A stretch of 64,000 bases of DNA, from contig NZ_CAKUBT010000007.1 of assembly GCF_934643285.1 (NCBI RefSeq), positions 4,755 to 68,754 on the forward strand, in the 5' to 3' direction. Positions 29,944 through 51,532 of this stretch are shown one piece after another. Source of the DNA: an uncultured Ellagibacter sp. (GTDB lineage: Bacteria > Actinomycetota > Coriobacteriia > Coriobacteriales > Eggerthellaceae). The translations under genes and the position numbers were made by a program. The notes under the pieces are model-generated. The model ran no database searches. It saw only the letters and a program-made list of their open reading frames with translations, and had not been told where the DNA came from. The first letter of the stretch is position 1. Every line of letters starts with the position of its first letter.

Positions 29944-29963
29944 CCTGCATCCACCTTTCCTTT

Positions 29964-35274: not shown

Positions 35275-35602
35275 GAGTCCTCCGCTCATCCAAGTGAAGG
35301 ACATGCTAGCGAGCGATTCAGGCACAACTCGAGCAAATAGCTTCTCGAAAACCCACGCCTTATCCGCAGGGATTAGTCAGCTTTTCCGAAAATGCGCGCA
35401 AAAACCTGGCAGTAAGTCCCTGAATACGCGCCATTTCTCGGCAGAAACGAGACGCGAAATCGAAAAAACCTTGCAGAAACCCGGCAGGAACCTGGCACGA
35501 CGTCGACGGAAAACAGGCAGGCCCGACGAGCCGTCAAGACGCGAACAATCCTCCGCCGAAAGAAAAAACGGGCCACGGAAAACCCGTGACCCGTCGAATA
35601 CC

Positions 35603-35717: not shown

Positions 35718-36539
35718 CTAGCGAGCGCAATATGGTGTGAACCCGAAGTGCTCTTGGAGCGCCGCCGAGACCGCAGCATCGTCTTCGAGCGGAGTCTTCT
35801 CGCTCACGCCGGATTCGCGCACGTTCAACACCCCGCGGCCGATGCTTTTGAAGCCGGAAGCCGTGCGGATATTCGCCATCACGGTATCGCGGAACACGGT
35901 CCCAGGCTGTGAACAGGCCAAACTCAACGCTGCAAAATCAATATCCTCGACAGCGGCAAGGCAGAACTCAAGCTCAGTCTGGCGCCTCGACGGACCCTCG
36001 TCGCCATACAGGTCGCGCTTCGCCTGCGAAATCCGGTCGATGGCCCACCAGTGCTCGTCGATACGGCGCGGAATGTACACCTCGCCGCGAACCGTCTGCT
36101 CACGCTCGTCGCAGATGACAAGCGAGCCCGCGGGAAGCGGTCCGCCGAACCCGACGTCGACTGAAAGCAGCTCCCCGTCGAGGGAAACAAGTGTGCCCCG
36201 GTGGTTGATCGGCATGCGCCCTTCCCTGCCGCGGACAGCTCGGCTGAGGCAGGGACGCACCTCGAAGCCCACCGAACGAAGCAGCAGCTCGAACATCTTG
36301 TTCAGCTCGAAGCAAAATCCACCATGCCGATCGACAACGATCTTTTGATAGAGGTCGCCCATCTCAAGAGAGGGCGCTTCCCCAAGCGCAACCAAATCGG
36401 CGGTTTCGAACGGGACGCTGCACTGATGCGCATACACCAGGCCGTCGAGCGTCTCTCTCGTCACCGGGGCGTCGCCTTCCCATCCGATTCTCGTCAAGTA
36501 CGCCGAAGTCATAACGTCGTTGAGCATCTCCATCGCCAT
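35718..36539 (-). CDS. Arylamine N-acetyltransferase (NAT family)
   Basis: Start at ATG 36539, 7 nt after GGAGGAGG. YLTRIGW..., catalytic Cys context HGGFCFELNKMF, typical NAT length. Confidence 0.85.
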   Translation of the reverse strand: MAMEMLNDVMTSAYLTRIGWEGDAPVTRETLDGLVYAHQCSVPFETADLVALGEAPSLEMGDLYQKIVVDRHGGFCFELNKMFELLLRSVGFEVRPCLSRAVRGREGRMPINHRGTLVSLDGELLSVDVGFGGPLPAGSLVICDEREQTVRGEVYIPRRIDEHWWAIDRISQAKRDLYGDEGPSRRQTELEFCLAAVEDIDFAALSLACSQPGTVFRDTVMANIRTASGFKSIGRGVLNVRESGVSEKTPLEDDAAVSAALQEHFGFTPYCAR

Positions 36540-36697
36540 AGAGGGCCTCCTCCGCAAATCGCCGCGTTTCCCATCGGTTCCATATTACTAGAGCAAGCCG
36601 CATATATCAGCTACACTCCAATTGAGTGTTGACTTGCCCTTGTTGCAGCGTATCTTGCATAGCAGGAACGCGTATTGCCGAGCCGAAGGGGGACGCC

Positions 36698-37156
36698 ATG
36701 GGATCCTACGAACGCGAACAGCAGATGATTGCCGACAAGACAGCCTCGCGAGGAGAAACCGCGCGACGGTATTTCGCGGAGCTCGATTCCCAGCTCAACG
36801 AGGAGACGTCGCATCTCTCCCATCGACCCGACTACTCGAAAACGCTCTTCGCTCCCGAAAACGACGACATCTACCGCGAGTTCTGTTCCTTCGTCGACCT
36901 TCCCGAGCCACGCCATTTCGACGATATCGAAGACCCGATCTCCGTCGATGGGCGCACTGCCGCCGACGTTTACTTCGCCATGAAATCGAAGAACGACCGC
37001 ATCGTCGCCATCGACGGCGCGGCCGTCTATAACATGCTCGTGAAACTTCGCACGCAGCCCGAGATCGCCAACAAGGTGCTCAACTTCCGTCCCACCTGCT
37101 ACCAGGGAGGATGCGGCTCAAAGGACGCTGGCTTCGACCTGGGGTATTACGACTAG
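36698..37156 (+). CDS. Hypothetical protein (152 aa)
   Basis: ATG 36698 after GAAGGGGGA. No recognisable motif. Confidence 0.5.
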   Translation: MGSYEREQQMIADKTASRGETARRYFAELDSQLNEETSHLSHRPDYSKTLFAPENDDIYREFCSFVDLPEPRHFDDIEDPISVDGRTAADVYFAMKSKNDRIVAIDGAAVYNMLVKLRTQPEIANKVLNFRPTCYQGGCGSKDAGFDLGYYD

Positions 37157-37362
37157 GAAGGCACCCGAGCAAGCCGCACACCCGGTGGAAAACAGGCTCG
37201 CCTGCGAAGGGCGCGAGGTAGCTCACCCGCGCAAGGCTAGCTTTGCGCCCGTTCCATAACAAAGCCGCGCGATTCGTCCCATAATTCCCGCACCGCCCAA
37301 ACGAACCCCCGCGCACCGCATACTGAAACGAAAGCACACGCCACCCTACCCGAGGAGTTCGC

Positions 37363-38442
37363 ATGCAAACCAGCAATGCGCTTTTGCTCGATATCGTGGG
37401 CGCCTCCCGAACTCGATTCGTCATTCCCCCTTATCAGCGGGCGTATTCGTGGAAGCGCCGCCAATGCGAAGAGCTCTGGCTCGACATTTTCCGCGCCGCA
37501 CGGTCCGCCTCGCAGCACTTCGTGGGAACGCTTCTCTACGCCCCCGAGAAAAGCGACGAGAACGGCAACGACCGTTTCTCCATCGTGGACGGCCAGCAGC
37601 GCACGACGACCATCTCGCTTATCCTGGTCGCGCTCGTTCGCCACCTGAGAAACACGGGCACCACCCTCGCCCATACTACGGCAGGCGAAATCGAGGCGCG
37701 CTACCTTTTACTCGACGGCGACTCGAACCTCCCTGGCAAGCTCGTGCTTTCCCGAGGAGACCGCACCTCCTACTTCGACGCGCTGCACGGGGCCGCTCCC
37801 GATGCGATCGCCTCGGAGTCCATCGCGCACAACCTCGCGTTCTTCAGCGAGAAAATGGCCGAGCCCGATTTCGACGCCGAAGCGCTCTGGCAGGGGCTCA
37901 ACCTGCTTTCCGTCATCTTCGCCGAAGTCGAGAAAACGGAGAGCGCACAGCCGATCTTCGAGAGTTTGAACTCCAAAGGTGCACCTCTTACCACCGCTGA
38001 CCTGGTACGAAACTATCTTCTGCTTGCCGAAACGCACACGCAGCAAACCTATCTCTACGACACGTATTGGAGCATCATCGAGAGCCTGTTCGTGCCCGAC
38101 CCTGGTTCTCTTCGGCTCGATAACGCGATCCAAGGATGGCTTTCGATTAGGTTCCGAAAGGTTCGTGCGCACGGGCCCGGCGAGGTGTACAGCATCTTCA
38201 AGCGCTACGTCGAGGACGACTACACCGGCACGACCGAGGACCTTTTGCGGGAGCTGCGCAACTTCTGCTTCGTCTGGGCGGAAAACTACCGCTACCACGC
38301 GGTGAAGAAGTTCCGCACCATGGATTGGGCTGTTAACGGCGCACCCACATTGACCAGCGGGTTCACCCGCCAGAAAGCCCACAACGAAGCATATGCGCAA
38401 CGCGTGCGCGCCGAGATGCGCAACACAGACGCGACGCTTTAG
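37363..38442 (+). CDS. DUF262 (ParB-like NTPase, GmrSD N-domain family) protein, no nuclease domain
   Basis: FVIPPYQRAYSWKRRQCEELW..., IVDGQQRTTTISL, IFESLNSKGAPLTTADLVRNYLL. Confidence 0.8.
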   Translation: MQTSNALLLDIVGASRTRFVIPPYQRAYSWKRRQCEELWLDIFRAARSASQHFVGTLLYAPEKSDENGNDRFSIVDGQQRTTTISLILVALVRHLRNTGTTLAHTTAGEIEARYLLLDGDSNLPGKLVLSRGDRTSYFDALHGAAPDAIASESIAHNLAFFSEKMAEPDFDAEALWQGLNLLSVIFAEVEKTESAQPIFESLNSKGAPLTTADLVRNYLLLAETHTQQTYLYDTYWSIIESLFVPDPGSLRLDNAIQGWLSIRFRKVRAHGPGEVYSIFKRYVEDDYTGTTEDLLRELRNFCFVWAENYRYHAVKKFRTMDWAVNGAPTLTSGFTRQKAHNEAYAQRVRAEMRNTDATL

Positions 38443-38452
38443 GAGAGATGGC

Positions 38453-39502
38453 ATGAAAACGACGCAGCGCACCTTCCTCGATTACCTCGGGGCACCGCAC
38501 ACGCACTTCATCATTCCCGTCTACCAGCGCGTCTACACCTGGAGCGACAAGCAATGCGCGACGCTCTGGCGCGACTGCGCGCATGCGGGCGAGACGCAAA
38601 GCGAGCACTTCATCGGGACGGTGCTCTATTCGCCCGACCCGGAGCTCACAAGCGCGCAGACCCAAGCAATCGACATCATCGACGGGCAGCAGCGCACGGC
38701 AACGATTTCGCTGCTCATCGCCGCGTTGGCCGACTATCTGGAAGAACAGGGAATGACCCTCGAAGACGGAACCGACGCAGCCGAGCTTCGCACGCGGTTC
38801 CTCTTTGCGGACGAGCGCAATCCCGAGGAAGCTTCGCGCAAGGAGAAGCTGACCCTCTCGCGGCTCGACAGGGAGACCATGACCGCGGTGCTCAACCACA
38901 CCGAGCCTCCCGAGGAGGACGACCTGTCGAAAAACGTCGTCTCCAACTACCAGCGCTTCAAAAGCTACCTGCAAGCCGAATCCGATGCGGAAACGATATG
39001 GCGAGGCCTCAAGCAACTGACCATCATCGCCGCCGAGGTCGAGGAAAGCGACCATCCCCAAACGGTGTTCGAGAGCCTGAACTCGAAGGGAATGCCGCTC
39101 ACCACAGCGGACCTTGCGAGGAACCTCTTGTTCTCCGACGTCGAGTACGAGGAGCAGGAGCGGCTCTACGATCATTACTGGAAACCCATCGAGAACCTGT
39201 TCGCGGATGACGATGACGACGCCACGAGCATGAACGCCGCGTTGCGCGGATGGCTCGCCGTGAAGGCGCCGCGCCTGCGCAGCAGGGCGAGCGACGATGT
39301 CTACGACGCGCTCAAAGCGTTCTTGCAAACCGAGAACCACGCAGATACCGAATCGTTGCTGCGTGGATTCAAGGGCTTTTGCGAAACGTTCCGCGCCCGC
39401 TCCCAGTCGAAGGGAGCGCGAACCGCCGATATGCACACGACCTGGGGAATCGGCGGAAGAACAAAGGGGCTGCCCGTCGATCGAAGTCTCTTCGGGGAAT
39501 GA
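38453..39502 (+). CDS. DUF262 protein, tandem paralog, no nuclease domain
   Basis: Start moved to ATG 38453 after AGGAGAG. FIIPVYQRVYTWSDKQCATLW, IIDGQQRTATISL, VFESLNSKGMPLTTADLARNLLF. Collinear with the upstream gene. Confidence 0.8.
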   Translation: MKTTQRTFLDYLGAPHTHFIIPVYQRVYTWSDKQCATLWRDCAHAGETQSEHFIGTVLYSPDPELTSAQTQAIDIIDGQQRTATISLLIAALADYLEEQGMTLEDGTDAAELRTRFLFADERNPEEASRKEKLTLSRLDRETMTAVLNHTEPPEEDDLSKNVVSNYQRFKSYLQAESDAETIWRGLKQLTIIAAEVEESDHPQTVFESLNSKGMPLTTADLARNLLFSDVEYEEQERLYDHYWKPIENLFADDDDDATSMNAALRGWLAVKAPRLRSRASDDVYDALKAFLQTENHADTESLLRGFKGFCETFRARSQSKGARTADMHTTWGIGGRTKGLPVDRSLFGE

Positions 39503-39586
39503 TCGCGCCAGCTTGCGGGCAGCATCGTGTCCGCAAGCAAACGCCCCGGCTGATGCCGCGGGTCCCGCCGAGAACCCCCGCCCACG

Positions 39587-39865
39587 CTACGCCGGGTCGG
39601 CGGAGTTCAGCCTGATGGCGCACGCCTGGAGCTCGTCGACCAGCTCCATCGTGAGAGGCTCCGCAAGCTCTTCGCCCGCCTCCAGCTCGGCGTCGAGCGC
39701 AAAGCAGCGCCTTACGAACGCCTCGTTTTCGGCATCGAACATCTTAAGCTCGCGCGCGGCGCGAAAGCCGTCTTCCACATCGGTCGACTTCGCGATGCGC
39801 CACAACAGCAGCGTCACCAGCCGAACCGACCCACGAAACCGCTTGTCAACAGGCACTTCAGCCAT
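39587..39865 (-). CDS. Hypothetical 92-aa protein, possibly the fourth gene of the LRR/VWA/MoxR operon
   Basis: ATG 39865 preceded by AAGGGGGA. Lies 95 nt downstream of the AAA-MTase stop on the same strand. Confidence 0.45.
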   Translation of the reverse strand: MAEVPVDKRFRGSVRLVTLLLWRIAKSTDVEDGFRAARELKMFDAENEAFVRRCFALDAELEAGEELAEPLTMELVDELQACAIRLNSADPA

Positions 39866-39959
39866 TGTTCCCCCTTTTTATGCGAAGGCGCCTGCCAAGC
39901 CGCAGCGGCCCGGCAGGCGCCTCACTCCCTCTGCAAGGCACGACGCCTAGCCGCAAAGT

Positions 39960-42395
39960 TTAGCGCTTCTTGCGAACGTAGAGAGACACGGCCGTGAACT
40001 TCACGTTTTCGTCTCCTGCCACCTTCGGCACGGTATGCCCCGCCTTGTAACCGCGATCTGCCTCAACCTCGAAGGACTCTTCGACAGAGGGCGTCTCGAA
40101 ACCCGCAGCTTCAAGCCATGCGACGTTTTCCTGCTCGGTTCGCGCCGCCTGCACGCTGTTGCCGATGGAGCGAGCCTCATCCACGACCGAGTCGGTGCGC
40201 GGCCGGTCCGCGAAGATTGTTTCCAAAATCAGCAGTCCGCCCGGTTTCAGGACGCGGCCAAATTCCCGTATTGCCTGCTCCTGATCGTAGAAAAGCGTAA
40301 TCACGTTATTCACGTAGATTGCATCGTAGACAGATGACCCAAGGCCTGCGCCGATCAGGTCTTCGGGGAAGGCGACGCGGAACTCCATGTTGTTGTGTGA
40401 AAGCCCGCTCTCGTGCCACGCGCGGCTCATGCCGTCTTTCGCCTCTTCGACATACGACGGGCTCCAATCGATGCCCATCACCTCGCCGCTATCGCCGACC
40501 AGGGAGCTGAGCTTGTATACGCCGCGCCCGCGCCTGCAGCATATGTCGAGCACCTTCTTGCCTTTGAGCTCCTCGCGCGGCAAGAGCATCTTGCACACGC
40601 TTGCGAAACCGTACTCGAACTGCTTCCCGCCATAGTGCCTTGCAAGCGCACCCGCAGGAATCTCCGCCGGCGTGCCCTGCGAGCCCCGTGCGCTCGCGGA
40701 GGCCGCAGAGGAAGGGGCGGAAGTCGCCGCGCCGCTATCGACCGCGCCGCCCGCAGGTGTTGAGACAGGCACCGCCGCGCCTCGCGAGCCCGCCGTCGCA
40801 CCTGGCTCGCCCTTCGGCTTCGAGCCGACGCGCATCCCGACCGCGCCGGGCTCGCCCACCTCGCGCTCTTCTGCCAGCGAGGCGTCGATCTCGGCAAGCT
40901 TGCTCACCCGCTCGGTAAGTCCCATGCGGGCCGCGTCGACCTGAAGCTCCTGGTTGTGCTCGTAGTACTTCTCGTTCCCGTAATGGGAGATGAAGCGCGT
41001 AGTCGGCTTGCGCGTGGTGAGCTCGGCAAGAAACACGAGCATCTCGCGGCTGCTGAGCGTCTCGTCGATGAAGTCGAACGCGTTGCCCATGCGCTCGTCC
41101 GCCATAGCTACCAAAGGCGAAATCTTCGAGACCTCAGCTTTGTACGCACGCTCGATGGCATGGAACGCAACATCGCCCTCGGTCGCCTTCTCGAGCATAC
41201 ACCGCGCCGCAAAGCCCTTCAGCAAGTCGATGACCAGGCGCTCCTCACGAACGAACTTCCGCGAGGCGGTGCCAGACTCGATCTTTCTCGCCAGTTTGCG
41301 CTCTCGCTCGGCAATGCGGGGAGCGAGCTCCTCGTCAACGCTCGCACCTGCAAGGAACCCGGGCTTCGTCTCGCGCAGCAAGTCGCGAAGCGCCACAACG
41401 ACGCCCTCCTGATCGAGAGCCTTCGAGCAATCCGCCGACAGCGTGTCGATCATCAGGCCCAGAAGCGCAATGCGCTCGTCGAAGGGCGCCGCTTTCGCGC
41501 GATCTTTGATGGACGGCGTCGCAGTACCGGAAAGAATCGACCCCACCTGATAATCGGAGCGATACTTCTCGAACAGCGAGTAGTACACGGTGAACTGGTC
41601 GGCAATTTCGTCGTCGCGCAGGAACTGCACGAACAAGTCGCGGTTCACCGGCTTGCCCATCTGCTCGTACAGCGAGATGACCTTGGCCAAATCCTCCCAG
41701 CCGCGAGCCGTCACGAACGACTTGCCGCCGCCCGGCCGCGACTCGACCTTGTAGAAGCAGTCCTTCTTCGCCTCGAGAAACGTGGTCACGGCGGGGTGGA
41801 GGCCCGCTTCGGAAGCGTAGGTCTTCCACGCGCCGTAGTCGGGCTCGACGTCGATTTCGCGCAAACGGTCAAGCGTCACGATGTCGAACTCGTGCACCGA
41901 GCGATTATACTCGGGCGGGTTGCCCGCGCACACGATGACCCATCCTTCAGGCACCCTATGTTTACCGAACGTCTTGAACTGCAGGAACTGGAGCATCGAG
42001 GGGTACAGCGTCTCCGAAACGCAGTTGATCTCGTCGAGGAACAGGATGCCCTCGCGCAACCCCGTGCGTTCCATGTAATCGTAAATCGCCGCGATGATCT
42101 CCGACATCGTGTACTCGGATGTATCGAATTCCTTCCCCTCGAATTCCCGATGCTCGATATGCGGAAGGCCGAGCGCGCTCTGGCGCGTATGATGCGTCAT
42201 GGAGTACGACACGATGCCGATGCCCAGCTCGCGGGCGACCTGCTCCATGATTGCGGTCTTGCCGATTCCCGGCGCACCCACCAAGAAAATCGGTCGCTGG
42301 TGCACGGAGGCAATCGAGAGCAGCCCCGCGTCATCCCTCTTCAAGTATGCCTCAACAGTGTCTTTCACCTGCTGTTTCGCCGAGACGATATTCAT
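39960..42395 (-). CDS. MoxR/AAA_5-type ATPase fused to a C-terminal class-I SAM-dependent methyltransferase
   Basis: Walker A GAPGIGKT, Walker B ILFLDEIN, helical middle region. Ala/Ser/Gly linker at aa ~512-580. MTase motifs VLDICCRRGRG, VMGIDWSP, LKPGGLLILE at aa ~585-811. Confidence 0.8.
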   Translation of the reverse strand: MNIVSAKQQVKDTVEAYLKRDDAGLLSIASVHQRPIFLVGAPGIGKTAIMEQVARELGIGIVSYSMTHHTRQSALGLPHIEHREFEGKEFDTSEYTMSEIIAAIYDYMERTGLREGILFLDEINCVSETLYPSMLQFLQFKTFGKHRVPEGWVIVCAGNPPEYNRSVHEFDIVTLDRLREIDVEPDYGAWKTYASEAGLHPAVTTFLEAKKDCFYKVESRPGGGKSFVTARGWEDLAKVISLYEQMGKPVNRDLFVQFLRDDEIADQFTVYYSLFEKYRSDYQVGSILSGTATPSIKDRAKAAPFDERIALLGLMIDTLSADCSKALDQEGVVVALRDLLRETKPGFLAGASVDEELAPRIAERERKLARKIESGTASRKFVREERLVIDLLKGFAARCMLEKATEGDVAFHAIERAYKAEVSKISPLVAMADERMGNAFDFIDETLSSREMLVFLAELTTRKPTTRFISHYGNEKYYEHNQELQVDAARMGLTERVSKLAEIDASLAEEREVGEPGAVGMRVGSKPKGEPGATAGSRGAAVPVSTPAGGAVDSGAATSAPSSAASASARGSQGTPAEIPAGALARHYGGKQFEYGFASVCKMLLPREELKGKKVLDICCRRGRGVYKLSSLVGDSGEVMGIDWSPSYVEEAKDGMSRAWHESGLSHNNMEFRVAFPEDLIGAGLGSSVYDAIYVNNVITLFYDQEQAIREFGRVLKPGGLLILETIFADRPRTDSVVDEARSIGNSVQAARTEQENVAWLEAAGFETPSVEESFEVEADRGYKAGHTVPKVAGDENVKFTAVSLYVRKKR

Positions 42396-42422
42396 AGTGT
42401 CCGTCCTTTCACGCGCCCGCGG

Positions 42423-44069
42423 TTAGCGGATGCCTTGGCTTTTGAACCGATTGATGCCCGCCTCGTCGATGACGACCTTCATCGCCCAGGGCGGCACTGG
42501 CGGAAGGTCGCGCCCCTCTTCGTCCATGAATACGAACGCTGTGTCGTAATCGGGCGGCTTTTCGGGAAAGCTCCCCAGACCGTCCGTGAAATAGATAAGC
42601 CCCTTCATCTCGGCCAACTCGCCGCGATCGCGCAGCGTCTCGACATAGTCGAACACTGGACGGAAGTCAGTCCCGCCGAACCCCCTGATGACGAAGTCCT
42701 CCATGAGCTTGTCGATCTCGCCGATATCGGTGATCCGCATATCGGACTGCACGCGCGCGTCGCATTGCACGATATGCACGTTGACCTCGGTCGTATAGGT
42801 TTCCGACTCCTTCAGGATGTCGAACGTGTGCTGGATGAATCGGCGGACCAGATCGCCCCGCACCGACCCCGACGTGTCGATCGCGATGACGAACTCGCGC
42901 ACCCGATCGGTCTCCTTGTACTCGAGCGGCTCGACAAGGGGCATGTTCCCGTAGAGCTCCATGCCGTAGGTGTAGTAGATGTAGTCGAATTCGTCCTGGT
43001 TGAGCAGCATTTCCTCGTTCATCGTCATGAACTTGCGCAGAAACTCCGTGTAGTCGTACACCTTGCGGTTCGCCACCGACAGATGCTGCATCAGGCTGTC
43101 CGATTCGCGGCCCCATTCCTTCGAGAAGGTCTCGAGGTTCATCTCGATTTCCTTCGAGATTTCCTCCCATTCCCGCTCAGCCTCGTCGTCCTCGGAATGA
43201 TCGCGTTCCTCATCCTCGCTGGTCAGCGGAACGGGCTCGGCGTTTTCACCTTCTCCATCCTCAGCATCATCGGTATCGTCCGCCGCATCTTCCGCCTGTT
43301 CGGTTTGCGAATCGTCCCTTTTATCGTCCGCGTCGGTTGGCTCGTCGGCACCGCCAGCAGATTCAAGCTCCATGTCGTCGGACTCGGGTGCTTCGCCGGA
43401 ATCGCGCTCGCTCACCTCTTCCGGCTTCTGAGCCTCACGGCGTTCAGCAGGCGAATCCTCGTCAGCATTCGACGGCCATGCCGAATGATCGTCCCTCTCG
43501 AACAGGGCAACCCAATCGTTGAGCGTCGAGCGGCCCATCCCCAGGTACTGCTGCCCGGAAGGCGCGAGAACCATACCCTTCACCAGCGCATATACCTTAT
43601 TGGGAAGAAGGCTTCCCGTGAGCATCTTTATCCTGTCGAGCGCTTCTGTTCGCTCGGCATCTTGCGGGGAGGGAAATCTCCCCGCGCACATGTCAAGCGC
43701 CACGCTTTCGGCGATGATATCGCACGTCAGGTTCCAAGCCTGGCGATTTCGGTGGTCCTTGTCGAACGGATGGCGGAAGATGCAGTGCATCACCATATGC
43801 AGGTAGTCGCGAATGAGCTCGTCGAAGCCCTCCTCGAACCGCGCGATCACACGCGGCGGATCGAACGCCACACGGCGCGCATCAGTGGTCAGCGGATACC
43901 GCGCCCCCGCACGAATCGGCAGGTTTTCCATGCGCCAAAGGGCCATGTCCAGGAAACGGAACTTCAGCATGAGCTGAACGCGACATTCGTCGAGGATGTC
44001 CCGAGCGAGCTCGTCTTCGCGCGCGCGTCGCGCAAGCTTCGTGTCAGCTATCGTCTCATGCTCCGACAT
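42423..44069 (-). CDS. DUF2201_N (putative metallopeptidase-like) + VWA-like (DUF2201) domain protein
   Basis: N-domain has HMVMH where HExxH is expected. Poly-acidic linker at aa ~200-305. VWA core with MIDAS AIDTSGS and GFGGTDF. Confidence 0.8.
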   Translation of the reverse strand: MSEHETIADTKLARRAREDELARDILDECRVQLMLKFRFLDMALWRMENLPIRAGARYPLTTDARRVAFDPPRVIARFEEGFDELIRDYLHMVMHCIFRHPFDKDHRNRQAWNLTCDIIAESVALDMCAGRFPSPQDAERTEALDRIKMLTGSLLPNKVYALVKGMVLAPSGQQYLGMGRSTLNDWVALFERDDHSAWPSNADEDSPAERREAQKPEEVSERDSGEAPESDDMELESAGGADEPTDADDKRDDSQTEQAEDAADDTDDAEDGEGENAEPVPLTSEDEERDHSEDDEAEREWEEISKEIEMNLETFSKEWGRESDSLMQHLSVANRKVYDYTEFLRKFMTMNEEMLLNQDEFDYIYYTYGMELYGNMPLVEPLEYKETDRVREFVIAIDTSGSVRGDLVRRFIQHTFDILKESETYTTEVNVHIVQCDARVQSDMRITDIGEIDKLMEDFVIRGFGGTDFRPVFDYVETLRDRGELAEMKGLIYFTDGLGSFPEKPPDYDTAFVFMDEEGRDLPPVPPWAMKVVIDEAGINRFKSQGIR

Positions 44070-44078
44070 GTCGCCCCC

Positions 44079-46385
44079 CTACAAATCGAAGTCCATCAAC
44101 TGGCTGCCGAAGAATCGGCGCTTCACTTCAAGAAGGTATCCTGTCATCGCGGCATCCTGCACATCACCCGCGCGCTCTACCACGATATCGATATTATCTT
44201 TTGTGAGATAGCCCAAATCAAGCATGTCATCTACGACCTGCCGATCGTCATGACGCGCCGCCTGCACGATGATGTCGACGAGGTTGCTCCTCATCACGCG
44301 ATCGCACATGCTCCTGTTCGAAGGCGTCATGAGAACAGGGTCTTTCAGCCGCGCGATGATCATCTTGCTCTGGTCGTATAGACCTATGCCGCCGTCTACC
44401 ATCGCGTCATAGCTCGAGCCGCTCACTATCGAGCCGTCGTAATGGTCGAGAATCGCCTCGACGCTCACATGATCGGGGACGCTGAATGCAAGCTCAATCT
44501 GCTTGACGCTTCGGTCAATCTCGGGAAAGCGCACGTCGAAGCTGGTATGACCCTCAATCGGCTCTTCAAGGTCAATGTGGATCAGCTCGATAAAGCACTG
44601 GAAGGCAAGGCCGCGCATTCCCACCAGCTTGATACGGTCGGAAAGGTAGAGCTCGCGAATGTTCCTGTCGCCGTTGAAAGCGTAGGGCGCGATGGCGACA
44701 ACCTCCTCGGGGATTCTCACGCATTCCCGAGAATCGGTGTTCACTACGACGCGGGCGTGGCCATTGCTCCATTTCTCGAGCAGCATGCCGCCCTTCTCCT
44801 CGTAGCGCGCATTGCCCTGCGCCACCGTTATCTCGCGAAGCGTCGGCTGGCGTTTCCCGTTGTGCGCGTTGTAAGTGACGAGCGCGTTCTCCTCGATTTT
44901 CTCGAGCGACGCGGGAATGTGAATCGATTCGAGCGCCGTGTCCATGAGCGCCTCAGCGCCCATCTCGGCAACGCCCTCCGGGATAACGACGCGCCGCAGC
45001 GCTCGGCAGCCCTTGCATGCGGCGGCACCGATAACGCGAACACCTTCGGGCAGCACCACCTCTTCGAGCGCCGCATGGTTGAGCAGCGCCCCCGAGGCTA
45101 CCTCCGTCGTCCCCCTCGCAGCCTCAAATCGCTTCGCCTCGCCATCGAACAGGCACAACAGCTTCATGCCGTCGCCTTGAAGCTCATAAAGAGCGCCAGA
45201 TTTATCGAGCACGAGCCGCTCGGAACCAGGCTCCATTGTAAACGTCGCACCCTCGCCCGCGTAAACCAGCTTCGTCCGCACAGCGATGGGGTAGCCGATT
45301 TCAACAATGCTGTTCGGAATCCTTAAGGTTGATATACCCGAATTGCTGAACGCATCCGCTCCGATGACCTGCAGCTTCTCGTTGAGCGAGACACCCTCAA
45401 GGGAGGCGCAGGCAAAGAATGCGCGCTCCCCGATTTCCCTCAAAGCAGAAGGCGCCTCGAAAGTTCGCACCCCAGTGCGAGCGAAAGCGTAGGGGCCTAT
45501 TACTTCAACGCTGTTCGGCAAGTCGACCTTCGCAAGCTCGTCAAAGGAGCTGAACGCCTTCCGAGCAATCGTCGTACACGAGGGCGCAACGGCGTACGAA
45601 AACAGGGGGCACGCAAGCGCCACGAGCGTTTCGCCGTCTTTCGAATAGATTGCAACCCCGTCGGTTTGCAGCCAAGGATTTTCAGGGTCGATCGATATTC
45701 CAATCAGCCGACTCTTCTGGAACGTTCCCGGTTCAACGCGGGAAAGCGCCGCGCCGAACTCAACATACTCAAGGTGAGGGATATCGAAGAGGCTCGGACC
45801 GACCTCTTCCAAAAGCCCCGGCATGCGCAATCTCGAAAGAGAAGGGCATCCACGAAACCAGTCGGACTCGAAAGTCGCAAGGTTACACGGCAGCACAACG
45901 CATTCCAAACGCTTGCAGAAGCGGAAAGCGCAGCCCCCGACAAACTTCACTTCATCTGGTACGACGATCGACGTCACGTCTTCCAGACCTGAGCAGGCAT
46001 CGGGTGCCAGCGAGCGAACCGGCAAACCCTCGATCGCATCGGGAACAACCAGCTCTCCCGCCGCACGAATACAACGATCGATGCGAACCGACGATTCCGA
46101 CAGCACGACGTATTCCCAATCGGTTCCAGCTTCATCAATGAAATGACAAAGCTCAGAAGTGCATGCATCCTGAATCGCCTGCGCTCGCAGAGCAGCCTCG
46201 CGGCGCTCACGAATTCGCGCCTCCGTCGAGATGACCTGCTCCCTTGTCGCCTTTCCGTCGTTGAGCGGCATAGGGGTAAAGCCTCCAAAGCTCACATCGA
46301 GCTTGCTAACATCGAGCGACTTGTTACGATTCACCTGAGCCTTAGCGTAGGCGATATGAGGAATCCCTAATAGACCGTCTGCCAT
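44079..46385 (-). CDS. BspA-type leucine-rich-repeat (LRR_5) protein, predicted cytoplasmic
   Basis: 768 aa with many repeats of the pattern ..F..C..L..V.LP..L..IG..AF... No signal peptide, TM helix or anchor is visible. RBS GAGGTG. Confidence 0.8.
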   Translation of the reverse strand: MADGLLGIPHIAYAKAQVNRNKSLDVSKLDVSFGGFTPMPLNDGKATREQVISTEARIRERREAALRAQAIQDACTSELCHFIDEAGTDWEYVVLSESSVRIDRCIRAAGELVVPDAIEGLPVRSLAPDACSGLEDVTSIVVPDEVKFVGGCAFRFCKRLECVVLPCNLATFESDWFRGCPSLSRLRMPGLLEEVGPSLFDIPHLEYVEFGAALSRVEPGTFQKSRLIGISIDPENPWLQTDGVAIYSKDGETLVALACPLFSYAVAPSCTTIARKAFSSFDELAKVDLPNSVEVIGPYAFARTGVRTFEAPSALREIGERAFFACASLEGVSLNEKLQVIGADAFSNSGISTLRIPNSIVEIGYPIAVRTKLVYAGEGATFTMEPGSERLVLDKSGALYELQGDGMKLLCLFDGEAKRFEAARGTTEVASGALLNHAALEEVVLPEGVRVIGAAACKGCRALRRVVIPEGVAEMGAEALMDTALESIHIPASLEKIEENALVTYNAHNGKRQPTLREITVAQGNARYEEKGGMLLEKWSNGHARVVVNTDSRECVRIPEEVVAIAPYAFNGDRNIRELYLSDRIKLVGMRGLAFQCFIELIHIDLEEPIEGHTSFDVRFPEIDRSVKQIELAFSVPDHVSVEAILDHYDGSIVSGSSYDAMVDGGIGLYDQSKMIIARLKDPVLMTPSNRSMCDRVMRSNLVDIIVQAARHDDRQVVDDMLDLGYLTKDNIDIVVERAGDVQDAAMTGYLLEVKRRFFGSQLMDFDL

Positions 46386-46487
46386 TCTCGCACCTCAAAG
46401 CAACTATCAACTAACGAACGCAATACGTCGCAAGGGGCAATCCAAGAATAACCCCCGTCCAATCCCATTGCATTCCCCAGAATAGAC

Positions 46488-46521
46488 AAAACGGCCCGAC
46501 GCGAGGGTGTCGGGCCGTTTT
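46488..46521. terminator. Bidirectional-looking terminator hairpin
   Basis: aaaa-acggcccgac-gcgagggt-gtcgggccgt-tttt. Lies 13 nt after the stop of the 46534..46869 gene, isolating it from the LRR operon. Confidence 0.65.
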
Positions 46522-46533
46522 CGTAAAATGCGA

Positions 46534-46869
46534 TTACTTTCGGGGAACGCCAGCAGGGTCGACCGGGCGACGAGAGGAAATCTCATCGCCAAACGTGATG
46601 CAATAGCGCATACCCTTGAGGGTTACGTACAAGCAGGCAATCTCATGCTTCCCGCCCTTGTTGAATACCTCGTAGGTCAGCATCTCGCGATCAATCATCG
46701 GTTGATAGATTTCGCTATCGACAACCTTCTCAAGCAACATGTTCGTCGCCTCGCGGCCAAGCTCGTCCTGCTTCAGAGCGATGTTGTACAGAATATCTTC
46801 TTGAGCTTCCGTAAGACGCCCGAGCTCTTCAACTTCAGCGCGAATTTCCTCTTCATTCGTCATAGCCAT
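46534..46869 (-). CDS. Hypothetical 111-aa protein
   Basis: ATG 46869, 11 nt after AAGGAGGA. Lower GC. No motif recognised. Confidence 0.45.
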   Translation of the reverse strand: MAMTNEEEIRAEVEELGRLTEAQEDILYNIALKQDELGREATNMLLEKVVDSEIYQPMIDREMLTYEVFNKGGKHEIACLYVTLKGMRYCITFGDEISSRRPVDPAGVPRK

Positions 46870-47014
46870 ATCGAAAGCAATCCTCCTTGAGTAGGTAGCG
46901 CGAAAACGCATAACTCTGCTGATGGAAGTATCTTAGCATTGGAAAATCGCCATTTGAGCAGGTCGAAGCTAGTGGAACAGTATGGCTGAAATCGTTTCAT
47001 CCGCATTTTCGGGA

Positions 47015-47048
47015 CAAAAAAAGAACCCCTTCTTACGAAGAGGTTCTT
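47015..47048 (-). terminator. Rho-independent terminator ending the molybdoenzyme operon
   Basis: Minus strand reads aagaacctcttcgtaagaaggggttctt followed by ttttttt. Confidence 0.6.
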
Positions 47049-47094
47049 AAGCGAGCTTAAATCAGGCCCCTAGAAAAACATCCCCTGGAGGGAA

Positions 47095-47370
47095 CTAGAT
47101 GCCGTTGTAGCCCTTCGAAGGATCGGAGTCGCCAACGCCATTAGCGGTGTCGCCAGCTTCATTGCCGGTACGCTTCGTAGAGGTGTATCCACCCCAAGCG
47201 CGAGCAATGAACTTGTCCTTCACGAAGAAGATCTGAGCCTTCATGAGGTCAGCCTGAGCAATGCCGTGCTCAGCGAGGACTTCGTCCTTGCTCTTGCCAG
47301 CCTCGAGGCCTGCGTTCAGCTCAGCAGCTGCAGCAGCAGCGTCGAGCTCAAAAAATTCATCGCGGGTCAT
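47095..47370 (-). CDS. Hypothetical 91-aa protein, third gene of the molybdoenzyme operon
   Basis: ATG 47370 after AAGGAGGG. MTRDEFFELDAAAAAAELNAGLEAGKSKDEVLAEHG... No motif recognised. Confidence 0.45.
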   Translation of the reverse strand: MTRDEFFELDAAAAAAELNAGLEAGKSKDEVLAEHGIAQADLMKAQIFFVKDKFIARAWGGYTSTKRTGNEAGDTANGVGDSDPSKGYNGI

Positions 47371-47453
47371 GTTATCCCTCCTTATTGGTCTATCACACGA
47401 TGCCGTGGTCGCCAGTCGCCTAGCGACCACAGACATCTTAACACACTAAAGAG

Positions 47454-47813
47454 TTACAGCTGGAAGAGAACCATCGGACGATCGAACTCTGCCATCTTGG
47501 CGATCATGTCCTCGAGGGTACCGTAGTACATCGAAGCGGACTCGTCGACCTGCACCGCGAGCGGACGCTGGCCGGCCTTGTCGCCATTGGTTCCCCAATG
47601 CTCGGAGAAGATGGACGTCGGGCAAGGAATGTAGAACCACTCCCAAGCGTCGCCGTCATTACCTTCGCCCTTCTTGAAGGGACCAACCTGAACTTCCTTG
47701 ATACCGAACTGTTCGAGAGGAAGGCCAAGCTCTTCTTTGCAGCCGATCTCGGCGGCATGGTTACCGGAGTAGTACGTGTAGTCTACGAGCAGTGCGTACT
47801 TCTGATCTGCCAT
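47454..47813 (-). CDS. Degenerate, truncated ferredoxin-like (4Fe-4S beta-subunit-derived) protein lacking cluster ligands
   Basis: N-terminus KYALLVDYTYYSGNHAAEIGCKEE aligns with the beta-subunit consensus (K/R)Y..(.)D...CxGCxxCxxACKxE. Three of the four Cys are replaced (Y, N, A). Only 2 Cys in 119 aa. RBS GAAAGGAAG. Lies 17 nt after the molybdoenzyme stop. Confidence 0.55.
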   Translation of the reverse strand: MADQKYALLVDYTYYSGNHAAEIGCKEELGLPLEQFGIKEVQVGPFKKGEGNDGDAWEWFYIPCPTSIFSEHWGTNGDKAGQRPLAVQVDESASMYYGTLEDMIAKMAEFDRPMVLFQL

Positions 47814-47830
47814 TTATGCCACTTCCTTTC

Positions 47831-50146
47831 TTAGTCGTCGGAGTTCAGGCTATGGACGCGGCGGATGTTGCACATAACACCCTTGTACGGAGCGCCAAAG
47901 CCAAGCTTACCAATGTTCTGATGCGGCACGAGGCTGTTGAAGTTGGACTTCCAAACGCCGAACAGGTTGGGCTCTTCGCCGTCCTGCTCAGGGAACCACC
48001 AGCCGTGAGCGCAGTTGAGGATACCAGGCTTCATGACCGGCGTGATCTCAGCCTTGAAGCGAGCCTCGCCGAACATGTTGTAAACCTCAATCCAGTCACC
48101 GTCGGTCACATCGTACTCTGCAGCGGTCTCCGGATTGATCTGGCACCACGGCCACGGATCGATCTGGCGCAGGGACGGAACCTGACGATGCTCAGAATGG
48201 AAGGAGCTGTAGCGACGGGAACCAGAGGTGGTGATCAGAGGATACTGACCAGCCAAGTCGGGCTTGCTGATCGGGCTGTAGTTCGGCTCCTCGTAGTACG
48301 GCAGCGGATCCTCGCCCCAGGATTCGTAAAGAATCGAGTAGGCTTCGATCTGGCCGGTAATGGTGTTGAAGCCGGGAGCACCGTCGAAGCGGAGCATGCC
48401 CTTCGCGTACTTCTCGTACTCGAAGCCATGAGCACCAGGCTGATAAAGGCCGAGCTCCTGGAAAGTCTTCCAGTCGAAGCCGAGCTCCTTGAGCTGATCG
48501 CTGAAGAAGTCTTCGACTGCCTGCTGAAGAGCAGCGAGGTCAAGCGACTTGCCGTCTGCAGGCTTGTACCACGGCCACCACTCGGGGTTGAGGCGCTGAC
48601 CGAACATGAGGCAGATCTCGATGTCGGACTTGCACTCGCCAACCGTGAGAGCCTTGTTCATGGGGCCCATGAACACGGTGTTGCGGCCATAGTGGGTGAG
48701 GACGATGCCATCATGCTCAGCCCAGGTGGACATGGGCAGGAAGTAGTCACCGAGAGCCATGGAAGTCGGCGTCTGGGTGAGGTCCTGGATGACGACGAAC
48801 TCGAGCTTCTGGAGAGCCTTGTGCCAACGCTTCGGCTGAGCGGAGCAGGTCGGCGTCAGGAAGTTGGAGCTGTTGAACCAGCCCATCTTCAGAGCGTACG
48901 GCTGATCCGTCTCCATGGTGTTCAGGGTCTCGTCAGGCTGGGTGGTAGCCATGCCGGTGGACAGGCCAGGCCACTGCGCAGCACCGATACGCTTCGACCA
49001 AACTTCGTCGGTCATAGCGCCGCGCTGCTCCATGCGCCACTTGCCGAGAAGTGCCGACGGAGGACCAAGGGTAAGTCCGCCAGGACGGTCGATAGAACCG
49101 CACATAGCAGCCAAGATGATGAAGGACTGGGACAGCTGAACGCCGTTCTTGTTCTGGTCGAATGCCAGACCCCAAGCCCAACCGATAGGACGCTCGGTGC
49201 CGATGATGTGAGCGACGCGCTTGATTTCCTCAGCGTCGACCGTGGTGATCTCGGCGACCTTGTCCACAGGATACTCAGCAGCGCGAGCCTTCAGCTCGTC
49301 AACGCCGTAGATCCAGTTCTCAACGAACTCATGATCGTACTCATCGTTCTCGAAGAGGAGGTTGATGAGGCCGAGTGCGAGAGCCGTGTCGGTCTGCGGG
49401 CGAACCTGCAGGTTGATGTTGCCATCATGAGCGCCGACCCAAGTGATGCGGGGGTCAACGGAGATGATGTGCGTGCCAAGCTTCATCATGTCGACGAGGC
49501 AGTGGCCGAAGAAACCGTCGCCGTTGGAGGGCAGCGGCTCCTTGCCCCAAACCACAACCCACTTGGACAGCGTGTAACGCGGGTCATGATAAGAACCGGG
49601 CAGGTGACCAGCGTAGTCGAGCTCAGGATAGCCTGCGCCGAGCACGTAGTCAGAGATGGAGCAACGAGGACCGTAGCAGGACCAGCCGGACTGCGTGTAG
49701 CAGCAGTTGGGGGACTGCAGAACGGAGAACGTCAGCGCGTAGTAGTAGATGCAAGCCTCACGACCCGTACCACCGAAGCAAACGATGGACTCGGGGCCGT
49801 AGGTGTTCTGGAAGTAACGGACCTTCTCGCAGATCGTGTCCATTGCCTCGTCCCAAGTGGTGCGCTCCCACTTGTCCTTGCCGCGATCTTCGAACGCGCG
49901 CTTCATCGGGTAGATGACGCGATTCGGAGAATGGGTGTACTCACGAAGAGCAAGGTTCATGGCGTTAACACGACCAGTGGTGATCGGGTTATCGTCGTCG
50001 CCTTCGACACGGATGAGCTGGTCGCCCTTCGTAACGACCTTGACACCGTATCCAACCGGGTGAGATCCCGGAGGAGACCAAGTGTTGCTACGAGTGACTA
50101 CGGTACCGTCTTCAAGCTCGGTACGCCACTGCTTACCATATGCCAT
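47831..50146 (-). CDS. Molybdopterin (bis-MGD) oxidoreductase-family catalytic subunit, cytoplasmic, without the N-terminal FeS-cluster motif
   Basis: Start moved to ATG 50146 after GGAAGGAAG (MAYGKQWRT...). MopB core (ISVDPRITWVGAHDGNINLQVRPQTDTALALGL) and C-terminal molydop-binding barrel (INPETAAEYDVTDGDWIEVYN..). The usual CxxCxxxC...C region reads TWSPPGSHPVGYGV...GRVNAMN. No RR signal peptide. Confidence 0.85.
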   Translation of the reverse strand: MAYGKQWRTELEDGTVVTRSNTWSPPGSHPVGYGVKVVTKGDQLIRVEGDDDNPITTGRVNAMNLALREYTHSPNRVIYPMKRAFEDRGKDKWERTTWDEAMDTICEKVRYFQNTYGPESIVCFGGTGREACIYYYALTFSVLQSPNCCYTQSGWSCYGPRCSISDYVLGAGYPELDYAGHLPGSYHDPRYTLSKWVVVWGKEPLPSNGDGFFGHCLVDMMKLGTHIISVDPRITWVGAHDGNINLQVRPQTDTALALGLINLLFENDEYDHEFVENWIYGVDELKARAAEYPVDKVAEITTVDAEEIKRVAHIIGTERPIGWAWGLAFDQNKNGVQLSQSFIILAAMCGSIDRPGGLTLGPPSALLGKWRMEQRGAMTDEVWSKRIGAAQWPGLSTGMATTQPDETLNTMETDQPYALKMGWFNSSNFLTPTCSAQPKRWHKALQKLEFVVIQDLTQTPTSMALGDYFLPMSTWAEHDGIVLTHYGRNTVFMGPMNKALTVGECKSDIEICLMFGQRLNPEWWPWYKPADGKSLDLAALQQAVEDFFSDQLKELGFDWKTFQELGLYQPGAHGFEYEKYAKGMLRFDGAPGFNTITGQIEAYSILYESWGEDPLPYYEEPNYSPISKPDLAGQYPLITTSGSRRYSSFHSEHRQVPSLRQIDPWPWCQINPETAAEYDVTDGDWIEVYNMFGEARFKAEITPVMKPGILNCAHGWWFPEQDGEEPNLFGVWKSNFNSLVPHQNIGKLGFGAPYKGVMCNIRRVHSLNSDD

Positions 50147-50312
50147 AGTCTTCTTCCTTCCTTTTCCCTCGCCAATTTCTTTCTCCACATTTACCAAGCG
50201 GGGTCGCTTGGAAGCCGCTGTCTTGCTTCCTTGCGTCACCGCCTCAAGGCACGTTTCATATTAGAGACATTACGGGGCTTGGAATCGAATCAGCGGGTTG
50301 TTTTTGGGTAGT

Positions 50313-50335
50313 TCAACCTCATCCTGTTAGGTTGA
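50313..50335. promoter_or_regulatory. Inverted repeat TCAACCT-N9-AGGTTGA in the molybdoenzyme promoter region (candidate operator)
   Basis: TCAACCT at 50313-50319 and AGGTTGA at 50329-50335. The 9-mer TCAACCTCA is shared with 57226-57234. Confidence 0.35.
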
Positions 50336-50593
50336 TTTTCGTAATCCAACCCTCTATTTCCCCTGGTCATAAAAAATTCCGCGAACGGCATGCCCATTTT
50401 TCAACTTTTTGGCATTTCACGTCCCTCCCCTGAAATCGGGTAGGAAAAGGCGCGGAATCACGCGCTGCATGACACCATCCATTGGTACAATAAGAAGCGG
50501 TATTCATGCTGTCTGATACCAATTACGTATGAAGATATCCACGTCACGTCCCGGGCCTGATTCACGGCCCGGTTTTTTGGGGAGGAACGCACT

Positions 50594-51370: not shown

Positions 51371-51532
51371 GCGCCCCTGCATCACCTAACATGCGAAAGC
51401 CGCTGCAAAGCTGCAGCGGCTTTTCTTTCGCCTGAGCGAGGCTCTGTTTGGCTCGTATAGGCACAGCAAGGCCCCCGCATCTGCGAGGGCCTTTTGTTTC
51501 ACTTGAAATGGATGTGTTGCTTCGGCGATGCG

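Follow-up and report, generated by a model that had tools for sequence, protein, structure and literature searches.

MoxR-type AAA+ ATPases are encoded beside proteins with an N-terminal domain, a long linker and a C-terminal von Willebrand factor A (VWA) domain bearing a metal ion-dependent adhesion site (MIDAS) in the NorQ/NorD, CbbQ/CbbO and RavA/ViaA systems. A related coupling is found in midasin (Rea1), in which a MIDAS domain grips an acidic residue of the partner and an AAA_5-type ring drives its extraction with ATP. We describe here a locus with the arrangement of the former systems, which lies in a 64,000-nucleotide (nt) stretch of DNA from an uncultured Ellagibacter sp. of the Eggerthellaceae (contig NZ_CAKUBT010000007.1, positions 4,755 to 68,754), referred to below as the window. 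The contig stems from a human-gut (Hadza) metagenome. Three adjacent minus-strand genes encode a leucine-rich repeat (LRR) protein, a VWA protein with DUF2201_N and DUF2201 domains, and a MoxR-like ATPase with a fused S-adenosylmethionine (SAM)-dependent methyltransferase. In the NorQ/NorD pair, the VWA domain and the linker of NorD are engaged and remodeled by NorQ (PMC13036017), and MoxR-vWA pairs joined by a third protein have been described as ternary systems, in VMAP, iSTAND, FtsH and beta-propeller classes (Kaur, Burroughs, Iyer and Aravind 2020; PMC7159879). Compared with the NorQ-type systems, the sequence likeness of the ATPase is marginal (Pfam AAA_5, 27.6 bits), and it carries an extra helical domain of ~220 amino acids (aa) besides the methyltransferase. 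The trio further differs from NorQ/NorD in the zincin-like N-domain of its VWA partner, in a conserved, multi-copy LRR component, and in that no metalloenzyme client is conserved near it. The positions and strand of the trio and its gaps (9 nt between the LRR and VWA genes, 27 nt between the VWA and ATPase genes), as given in a first-pass annotation of this DNA, were all reproduced, and a Pfam run on the three proteins upheld the domain content assigned there.

The trio is a genuine co-inherited system that spans two phyla, and no chance neighborhood. The AAA+ part without the methyltransferase was searched against 1.84 billion representative proteins (50%-identity representatives), and 515 clusters were matched at E<1e-30, with nearly all of the best 150 being ~500 aa long without the extension. 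At least 598 stretches in GTDB species-representative genomes encode this ~500-aa family; the best 80 of them comprise ~30 from Coriobacteriia and ~50 from Clostridia, including Lachnospiraceae and Oscillospiraceae. Loci were screened by a six-frame search of open reading frames with the window proteins, followed by clustering of all called genes. The only families that recur across the 88 loci are the ATPase (72 loci), the DUF2201 VWA protein (71 loci) and the LRR protein (66 loci, 100 genes). Adjacency was counted in the 56 loci with enough flanking sequence: a VWA gene lies within 6 kb of the AAA gene in 55 of them, a protein bearing the C-terminal module (CTM) described below lies within 10 kb in 53, and an LRR_5 gene is detectable beside both the AAA and VWA genes in 50 (phmmer with the LRR region). 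The order of the genes depends on the lineage, being LRR-VWA-AAA in Eggerthellaceae, VWA-AAA-LRR in Lachnospiraceae and VWA-LRR(n)-AAA in Oscillospiraceae, which points to selection on co-occurrence and not on inherited order. The neighborhood search thus bears out the initial view of a co-conserved, NTPase-centered unit of a MoxR-like AAA+ protein, a MIDAS-VWA protein and a repeat protein in Coriobacteriia and Clostridia.

Several genomes hold more than one copy of the system. One Eggerthellaceae metagenome-assembled genome (MAG) from sheep gut, represented by loci L033 and L017, has three; two of these stand in tandem (L033, 2646-13535), one with the methyltransferase and one without it, each with its own divergent LRR gene. 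Multiple copies per genome also occur at L013 and L036.

The feature that unites the third components was found by inspecting the C-termini of the associated LRR proteins, which have in common the ~100-aa CTM. A hidden Markov model (HMM) derived from the last 100 aa of the partner proteins scores 87-91 bits on the LRR protein of the window. Its matches cover 88 loci that had been fetched via the VWA or AAA gene, and nearly all of them lie on an open reading frame next to that pair. The consensus of the module reads ...RL.dP..L......dlG.lt.eN.d.lle.....A...AyLLeyK..rFg....DFdL-COOH, and its last four positions are D (-4), F/L/Y (-3), D/E (-2) and L (-1). The CTM also occurs on partners without LRRs, namely an ankyrin-repeat protein (L038, L079) and a DUF4132 protein (L086, L104). 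A comparison with Pfam and the PDB returned nothing significant, only sub-threshold ankyrin hints, and a word-index protein search with the C-terminal 176 aa of the LRR protein matched 10 fragments. From 1 to about 9 LRR genes accompany a single ATPase/VWA pair (for instance L053, L061, L080, L086 and L104). What is new here is that the LRR partner of a MoxR/VWA pair, itself variable and multi-copy, bears this constant module of docking-like character. The DUF4132 protein with the CTM and its tail is situated inside a nine-gene LRR array (L086, 13490-15007; L104, 19126-20646).

The 768-aa LRR protein matches Pfam LRR_5 with E=2.6e-51, and its sequence matches in the PDB are BspA-type LRR proteins. 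The nearest NCBIfam models are those of the adhesins HupY/LrrG and Gli349, far below their cut-offs. A hydropathy scan found neither an N-terminal hydrophobic signal nor a transmembrane segment in this protein, and by the same heuristic about 98 of 100 associated LRR proteins lack both. The two signal-bearing exceptions stand at the upstream edge of one array (L080), and Pfam detects no anchor domains in the LRR partners. The cytoplasmic location predicted for the window protein therefore holds for the family as a rule. The LRR protein has its repeats in common with the BspA-type surface proteins BspA, LrrA, TpLRR and PcpA, but differs from them in having no signal peptide, lipobox, wall anchor or choline-binding domain, and in carrying the CTM and being linked to an ATPase/VWA pair.

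The VWA protein matches DUF2201 (E=1.2e-14) and DUF2201_N (E=4.1e-07). Its homologues at E<=0.001 exceed 7,500 and are named 'VWA-like domain-containing protein' or 'metallopeptidase' by the sources. Its N-domain contains the motif H91-M-V-M-H95-C-x3-H100, in which relatives keep H91 and H95 without exception and H100 at 95%. The motif thus reads H-M-V-M-H here and not HExxH; a hydrophobic residue takes the place of the catalytic Glu in nearly all of 71 aligned sequences, HE being present only in L074. Three further residues, D117, D193 and H195, do not vary and E121 hardly does, and no PDB structure matched the domain among the 50 best listed. Judged from these residues, the metal site is probably kept and canonical peptidase chemistry is doubtful. 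The retention of the metal-binding histidines together with the loss of the catalytic Glu makes a binding or metal-handling domain likelier than a protease.

The acidic linker that follows varies in length from 49 to 164 aa among relatives, and residues 197-292 have a predicted local distance difference test (pLDDT) score below 50 in the AlphaFold2 (AF2) model. A further stretch of low confidence (pLDDT <50) directly precedes the VWA domain and contains the invariant residues E352, D362, Y366, G369, P377, L378, E383 and Y384. It is a candidate partner-interaction motif, because near-invariance combined with low model confidence is the pattern typical of such segments. The MIDAS of the VWA domain, described as an intact DTSGS motif in the first-pass annotation, is indeed complete and is kept in relatives, with D398, T467 and D496 invariant and S400 and S402 conserved at 98%. 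In the AF2 model, which derives from a shallow alignment, pLDDT is 64 overall and 60-85 in the VWA domain. Foldseek matches of this domain include the A2 domain of von Willebrand factor, integrin I-domains, Rpn10 and the MIDAS domain of MDN1, with TM-scores on the target of 0.38-0.61.

The AAA_5 score of the ATPase exceeds the cut-off of 22 bits, and is thus marginal but above threshold; the match to Pfam bpMoxR (27.2 bits against a cut-off of 27) covers residues 9-76 only, i.e. 68 residues, and no NCBIfam MoxR model was matched. An alignment of 60 family sequences shows no variation in the Walker A motif GAPGIGKT, the Walker B residues D121-E122, sensor-1 N159, R177 or R231, so that the arginine finger and sensor 2 are intact beside Walker A, Walker B and sensor 1. 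An AF2 model of residues 1-510 reached a pLDDT of 91.5 and a predicted template modeling (pTM) score of 0.83. It contains a helix-2 insert in the form of a beta-hairpin (residues 80-93) after strand 2, and paired strands at about residues 142-148 just before the sensor-1 strand. A helix-2 insert and a pre-sensor-1 hairpin mark the MoxR/dynein clade, to which the ATPase belongs according to the model. NorQ, CbbQ and dynein AAA modules are the best Foldseek matches. The helical domain formed by residues 291-510 is present in the ~500-aa family and is modeled with confidence as long helices; it corresponds to no Pfam family, and the structural matches to NorQ and CbbQ (246-267 residues) span the AAA+ module only.

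Several class I SAM-dependent methyltransferase families of Pfam match residues 605-766 above their cut-offs, among them Methyltransf_31 (E=3.4e-15). ArsM is the nearest solved relative (E=4.9e-15 in a PDB sequence search), and the domain is closest to ArsM/UbiE-type enzymes, yet far under any NCBIfam equivalog cut-off. Motif I, VLD[IV][CGA][CS]RRG[RK]G, is conserved in 19 aligned fused relatives and reads CCRRGRG here; it is unusual in having Arg at the central Gly position, and the post-I Asp (D of G-I-D-W) is conserved. An assignment as ArsM was rejected at 59.5 bits against the ArsM cut-off of 263. The position that presumably corresponds to the As(III)-binding Cys of the ArsM 'SNCV' motif reads 'VNNV' here. 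The fusion is confined to part of the Eggerthellaceae, being absent from L023, L026, L029, L035, L036, L039 and L085 of that family and from every Clostridia locus. Both this distribution and the unextended form of nearly all of the best 150 representatives show that the methyltransferase, at first counted as a core part, is a lineage-specific addition.

Table 1. Features of the trio locus in the window (positions in nt of the window; residues numbered within the encoded protein).
Feature	Position	Strand	Residues	Description
s92	39587..39865	(-)	92 aa	after the AAA::methyltransferase gene; possible accessory gene
AAA::methyltransferase gene	39960..42395	(-)	811 aa	MoxR-like AAA+ ATPase with fused SAM methyltransferase
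Class I SAM-dependent methyltransferase domain	39963..40598	(-)	600-811	lineage-specific fusion
Ala/Ser/Gly/Pro low-complexity linker	40599..40865	(-)	511-599	variable, gapped in relatives
C-terminal domain of ATPase	40866..41525	(-)	291-510	family-specific, all-helical
MoxR-like AAA+ module	41526..42395	(-)	1-290	
VWA gene	42423..44069	(-)	548 aa	DUF2201_N + DUF2201; predicted MIDAS cofactor of the ATPase
VWA domain	42465..42902	(-)	390-535	complete MIDAS
Conserved low-confidence stretch	42906..43025	(-)	349-388	just before the VWA domain
Acidic disordered linker	43170..43475	(-)	199-300	38% Asp+Glu
Zincin-like N-domain	43476..43976	(-)	32-198	degenerate active site
LRR gene	44079..46385	(-)	768 aa	predicted cytoplasmic LRR_5 protein; third component, candidate specificity subunit or client
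CTM	44082..44375	(-)	671-768	of the LRR protein; ends ...MDFDL-COOH
LRR_5 repeat region	44616..46088	(-)	about 100-590	three matched stretches in Pfam LRR_5
Terminator-like hairpin	46488..46521	(-)		between s125 and LRR gene; 13-bp stem, 8 G-C pairs, then GTCTATTCTG
s125	46534..46911	(-)	125 aa	directly upstream of LRR gene; conserved there in relatives

The layout of the trio had been likened to that of the published ternary systems, which likewise combine a MoxR-like ATPase and a vWA protein with a conserved third component made partly of repeats, the bpMoxR match being marginal. It also resembles the beta-propeller class in being without a conventional effector. By contrast, its third component consists of LRR_5 repeats and the CTM instead of VMAP-C, an inactive STAND, FtsH or a beta-propeller; its vWA protein ends in the vWA domain, with no further domain attached; its P-loop reads GAPGIGKT and not GxxxTAKS; and it is found in unicellular gut anaerobes in housekeeping contexts. 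The VMAP class is defined by a VMAP-C third protein, vWA proteins with C-terminal effectors and MoxR proteins with N-terminal WxhapG/PsWRxa motifs (PMC7159879). It was rejected, as Pfam finds no VMAP family in the trio, the VWA domain is C-terminal and the ATPase starts at the AAA+ helix without those motifs. The iSTAND and FtsH classes were discarded on the absence of STAND and FtsH domains from the Pfam scans and on the recurrence of AAA, VWA and LRR families only. Against the beta-propeller class stand the lack of any extension after the VWA domain, an LRR_5 partner without a transmembrane segment, the GAPGIGKT P-loop and the shortness of the bpMoxR match (27.2 bits over 68 residues). None of the four classes fits.

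Other described systems have individual parts in common with the trio. Midasin resembles it in coupling an AAA_5-type ATPase to a MIDAS, and it appears both as a PDB sequence match of the P-loop region and, through MDN1, as a fold match of the MIDAS domain. It differs in that six AAA modules are fused, as opposed to the single module of the trio, in that ATPase and MIDAS are on separate proteins only in the trio, and in having as partner an assembly factor with a ubiquitin-like (UBL) domain where the trio has an LRR protein. The canonical DUF2201_N/DUF2201 proteins ('predicted metal-dependent peptidase') agree with the VWA protein in domain order, in H-x3-H-C-x3-H and in the MIDAS; a plasmid example has HEVLH and no AAA+ neighbor, whereas here the Glu is lost and the pairing with the ~500-aa ATPase is strict. 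This example (L110, NZ_CP027670.1, 4341-5513; HEVLHCGNGH) is encoded beside a DNA cytosine methyltransferase on a conjugative betaproteobacterial plasmid, and shows the same pair of domains put to another use.

The yehI-yehK-yehL-yehM-yehP-yehQ cluster of Escherichia coli likewise has a MoxR (YehL)/VWA (YehP) pair with a large repeat or helical protein, the DUF4132 protein YehI, and a DUF4132 protein with the CTM replaces or accompanies the LRR protein in only some loci (L086, L104). Homology to this cluster was rejected, since the AAA, VWA and CTM HMMs gave no match at E<=10 to YehI, K, L, M, P or Q. As a functional analogy only, the F-box-LRR receptors of SCF ligases combine a variable LRR surface with a small constant docking module, so that many receptors serve one machine; there is no homology, and the docking module, the machine and the chemistry all differ. 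PADLOC and a literature search (DUF2201, COG3864, LRR_5 with MoxR/VWA, and BspA with von Willebrand/AAA) returned no description of this system or of the DUF2201 family, in agreement with the earlier statement that no characterized system has this domain composition.

The chromosomal setting of the family is stable. The flanks of 24 Clostridia loci, comprising 95 genes, were examined with Pfam and PADLOC and are of housekeeping type: among them are relA/spoT, a metallo-beta-lactamase (MBL)-fold hydrolase, TraX, azoreductase-like flavoproteins, GDSL lipases, dCMP deaminase, RNase R, polysaccharide synthesis genes and transporters, and the PADLOC matches are scattered and generic. A defense-island context was rejected on these grounds. 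In Eggerthellaceae relatives the whole neighborhood is syntenic at 60-65% VWA identity, and the stretch is not 'accessory-looking', as it had first seemed. PADLOC-DB v2.0.0 contains no match for the LRR or VWA protein, and its matches to the fused protein are generic, with the methyltransferase matching mad2 and the P-loop matching IetA (weakly, for the ATPase). Among 2.9 million viral contigs of IMG/VR there are four true family members, and a few short unannotated 'Bacteriophage sp.' contigs from feces match the family; curated phage genomes gave weak partial matches to the VWA domain only. No members were found on plasmids, and the idea of a phage- or plasmid-borne element was therefore abandoned. 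The stability of the context argues for a housekeeping or regulatory function and not for a mobile defense island.

The three genes diverge at different rates under a common constraint. Identity to the sister species is 76% for the LRR protein, 87% for the VWA protein and 89% for the ATPase-methyltransferase protein, compared with 98% for the neighboring molybdopterin (Mo) oxidoreductase; in more distant Eggerthellaceae the LRR protein falls to ~45-50%, the ATPase to ~70% and the Mo enzyme to 86-90%. The LRR gene is thus the fastest-evolving of the trio. The ratio of nonsynonymous to synonymous substitution rates (dN/dS) is about 0.1 (0.10-0.11) for all three, which indicates functional genes under purifying selection. 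Identity of the AAA protein between the phyla is ~50%, similar to the deepest divergence within the Eggerthellaceae, and this level suggests an old horizontal transfer of the ATPase gene across phyla.

We propose, with about even confidence, that the locus encodes a self-contained ATP-driven protein-remodeling module of the MoxR/VWA type, with interchangeable LRR specificity subunits as a new third component. By analogy to NorQ/NorD, RavA/ViaA and midasin, the ATPase ring would engage the VWA protein, and either the MIDAS site of this protein or the ring itself may dock the CTM or the tail of the LRR proteins. ATP hydrolysis would then pull on the long linker of the VWA protein, the direction of the force again being taken from the analogous systems, and thereby remodel a cargo held on the variable LRR surface. 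The LRR proteins would serve as exchangeable subunits that combine a variable repeat surface with a constant docking module. In this Eggerthellaceae lineage the tethered methyltransferase may methylate the captured partner or a small molecule, and the two small genes s125 and s92 would have joined the operon.

Several points weigh against this proposal. The docking of the tail to the MIDAS or to the ring is pure inference, the VWA-protein model is of moderate quality only (pLDDT 64), and nothing in the data points to a target or a phenotype. Some LRR genes in the arrays are without a CTM, and no CTM protein is shown in L040, L059 and L080. The LRR proteins could be clients instead of adaptors, and their fast divergence, the multi-copy arrays and the probable cross-phylum transfer also fit a role in conflict.

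Four other explanations of the locus were considered. That the LRR gene encodes an ordinary BspA-type surface adhesin placed beside the MoxR/VWA pair by chance is hardly credible: LRR_5 repeats are best known from surface proteins and the nearest NCBIfam models point the same way, but signal peptides are absent from all but two of the ~100 associated LRR proteins, the adjacency holds in 50-53 of the 56 loci in two phyla, and the CTM runs throughout the family loci, nearly always on the neighbor of the AAA/VWA pair. These observations refute it. It is very improbable, too, that the trio matures or regulates the Mo oxidoreductase. In the window, as in close relatives, the gene of this enzyme and its two small partner genes come immediately upstream of the trio, and metalloenzyme maturation is a common role of MoxR/VWA pairs; the linkage, however, is limited to one Eggerthellaceae sub-clade, being absent from L016, L019, L024-L036 and all Clostridia loci, and the synonymous divergence (dS) of the Mo block is 0.04-0.22 as against 0.7-1.6 for the trio. 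Maturation of the Mo enzyme was ruled out on this restricted linkage and the differing dS. We regard as unlikely, though far less so, a chaperone role in which the MoxR/VWA pair folds, assembles or disassembles the LRR_5 proteins or a superstructure of them, gripping the CTM as a handle. Known pairs do serve one dedicated client that is encoded nearby (nitric oxide reductase (NOR) for NorQD, Rubisco for CbbQO, respiratory complexes for RavA-ViaA), the conserved C-terminal tail resembles a recognition tag, and no other conserved neighboring gene could be the client. It is nevertheless hard to see why 1 to 9 divergent LRR paralogues should each need a dedicated machine, as LRR solenoids are generally self-folding; the CTM is missing from some array members; and the retained zincin-like metal site and the methyltransferase would be left unexplained.

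Better placed, though still on the unlikely side, is an anti-phage or conflict system in which the diversified cytoplasmic LRR proteins sense an invader protein, the MoxR/VWA pair forms an NTP-dependent switch, and the degenerate zincin or the methyltransferase acts as effector. The published ternary systems are predicted conflict systems, whose beta-propeller class is also without conventional effectors (PMC7159879). The LRR component evolves fastest, both toward the sister species and farther out; its arrays reach about nine paralogues; two or three copies of the system are present in some genomes (L017 and L033 in the same MAG; L013 and L036); and the ~50% identity of the AAA protein between phyla suggests horizontal transfer. 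Against these stand the lack of PADLOC models for the LRR and VWA proteins, the housekeeping flanks with their scattered PADLOC matches, and the syntenic position of the locus near tig across the Eggerthellaceae. Nor does the locus encode a nuclease, TIR, caspase or pore-forming effector, and the zincin has lost its catalytic Glu. The genes are under purifying selection, and members of the family are very rare on viral contigs and were not found on plasmids. A defense role, as raised in the first-pass annotation, thus receives no support from the context. A more speculative form of the remodeling module, which we hold to be unlikely, is a surveillance machine in which arrays of diversified, CTM-bearing LRR receptors would capture foreign or aberrant proteins that the MoxR/MIDAS motor then disassembles or modifies.

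Two small genes border the trio. In L023 and L026 the LRR protein carries s125 as an N-terminal fusion (phmmer E=1e-18 and 5e-18), and in L013 and L020 only 9-20 nt separate s125 from the LRR gene downstream; on these grounds s125 is counted in the system in Eggerthellaceae. It corresponds to no Pfam family, and a resemblance to the CTM, seen by eye as a helical hairpin, was rejected when the CTM HMM gave no match even at E<=10. The gene s92 follows the AAA::methyltransferase gene in close relatives (L003-L014, L028, L037, L106), with a gap of 3 nt in L013, and is found only with the versions that bear the methyltransferase; Pfam, NCBIfam and PADLOC returned no family match.

Purine-rich sequences resembling Shine-Dalgarno sites precede the three starts of the trio (GAGGTG, GGGGGG and AAAGGA), so that the ribosome-binding sites expected there are present at every gene, with an approximate likeness to GGAGG. 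The terminator-like hairpin upstream of the LRR gene is likewise present as predicted, but it does not insulate the trio as a functional boundary, since s125 beyond it belongs to the system. A second, GC-rich hairpin at 39880-39945 (-), GGCGCCTGCC...GGCAGGCGCC, lies between the stop codon of the ATPase-methyltransferase gene and s92 without a clear T-tract; it is a possible processing site or weak terminator. An Rfam scan of window positions 36000-52000 found no RNA family. Antisense to the VWA and ATPase genes runs an open frame of 1141 aa (40956-44381, +), for which gene clustering gave no recurring relatives except the corresponding antisense frames of other high-GC loci. We take it with near certainty for an artifact of GC-rich sequence and no gene.

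Convergent to the operon are tandem GmrSD_N (DUF262) genes of ~350 aa each (37363-38442 and 38393-39502, both +). GmrSD_N is the sole Pfam match of both, and no DUF1524 nuclease domain was found in either. Being syntenic only in the closest Eggerthellaceae relatives and absent elsewhere, they are lineage-specific neighbors of the trio and no partners. Downstream of this pair, a gene for an arylamine N-acetyltransferase accompanies a Tad/Flp-type pilus cluster (~29900-35300, -) that encodes RcpC/SAF, a TadZ-like ParA, the TadA T2SSE ATPase and TadB/C T2SSF proteins. On the other side, the Mo block (47095-50239, -) consists of the molybdopterin oxidoreductase gene (47831-50239) and, downstream of it, two small genes whose products (119 and 91 aa) match no family. 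Its proteins are 98-100% identical to those of the sister species, which, together with its low dS beside that of the LRR, VWA and AAA genes, suggests either recent exchange or unusual constraint. In 11 Eggerthellaceae loci the trio and the trigger factor gene tig (52117-53427, - in the window; also L013, L020 and L037) are no more than a few kb apart, and in 5 Lachnospiraceae loci (including L057, L058, L075 and L077) the trio directly adjoins the gene of a trigger-factor-like FKBP protein for which an N-terminal membrane anchor is predicted; these neighbors may be a coincidence or may reflect a chaperone link.

Gut Clostridia and Coriobacteriia abound in cytoplasmic BspA-type LRR proteins, to which no function has been assigned, and the DUF2201-type VWA proteins, which number in the thousands, are equally unstudied. 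Our results tie both families to a distinct MoxR-like ATPase and turn a set of 'hypothetical' annotations into one testable system, for which the methyltransferase fusion of the Eggerthellaceae offers a natural handle on the target. If the receptor-plus-motor model is true, the trio would represent a new AAA+ architecture and a new bacterial use of LRR domains, with relevance to proteostasis or immunity in dominant gut taxa. Should the surveillance machine prove to be real, it would be a prokaryotic equivalent of F-box receptors or of LRR-based receptors of innate immunity, resting on a docking domain that has no Pfam family or solved structure, and widespread in the anaerobes of the human and animal gut.

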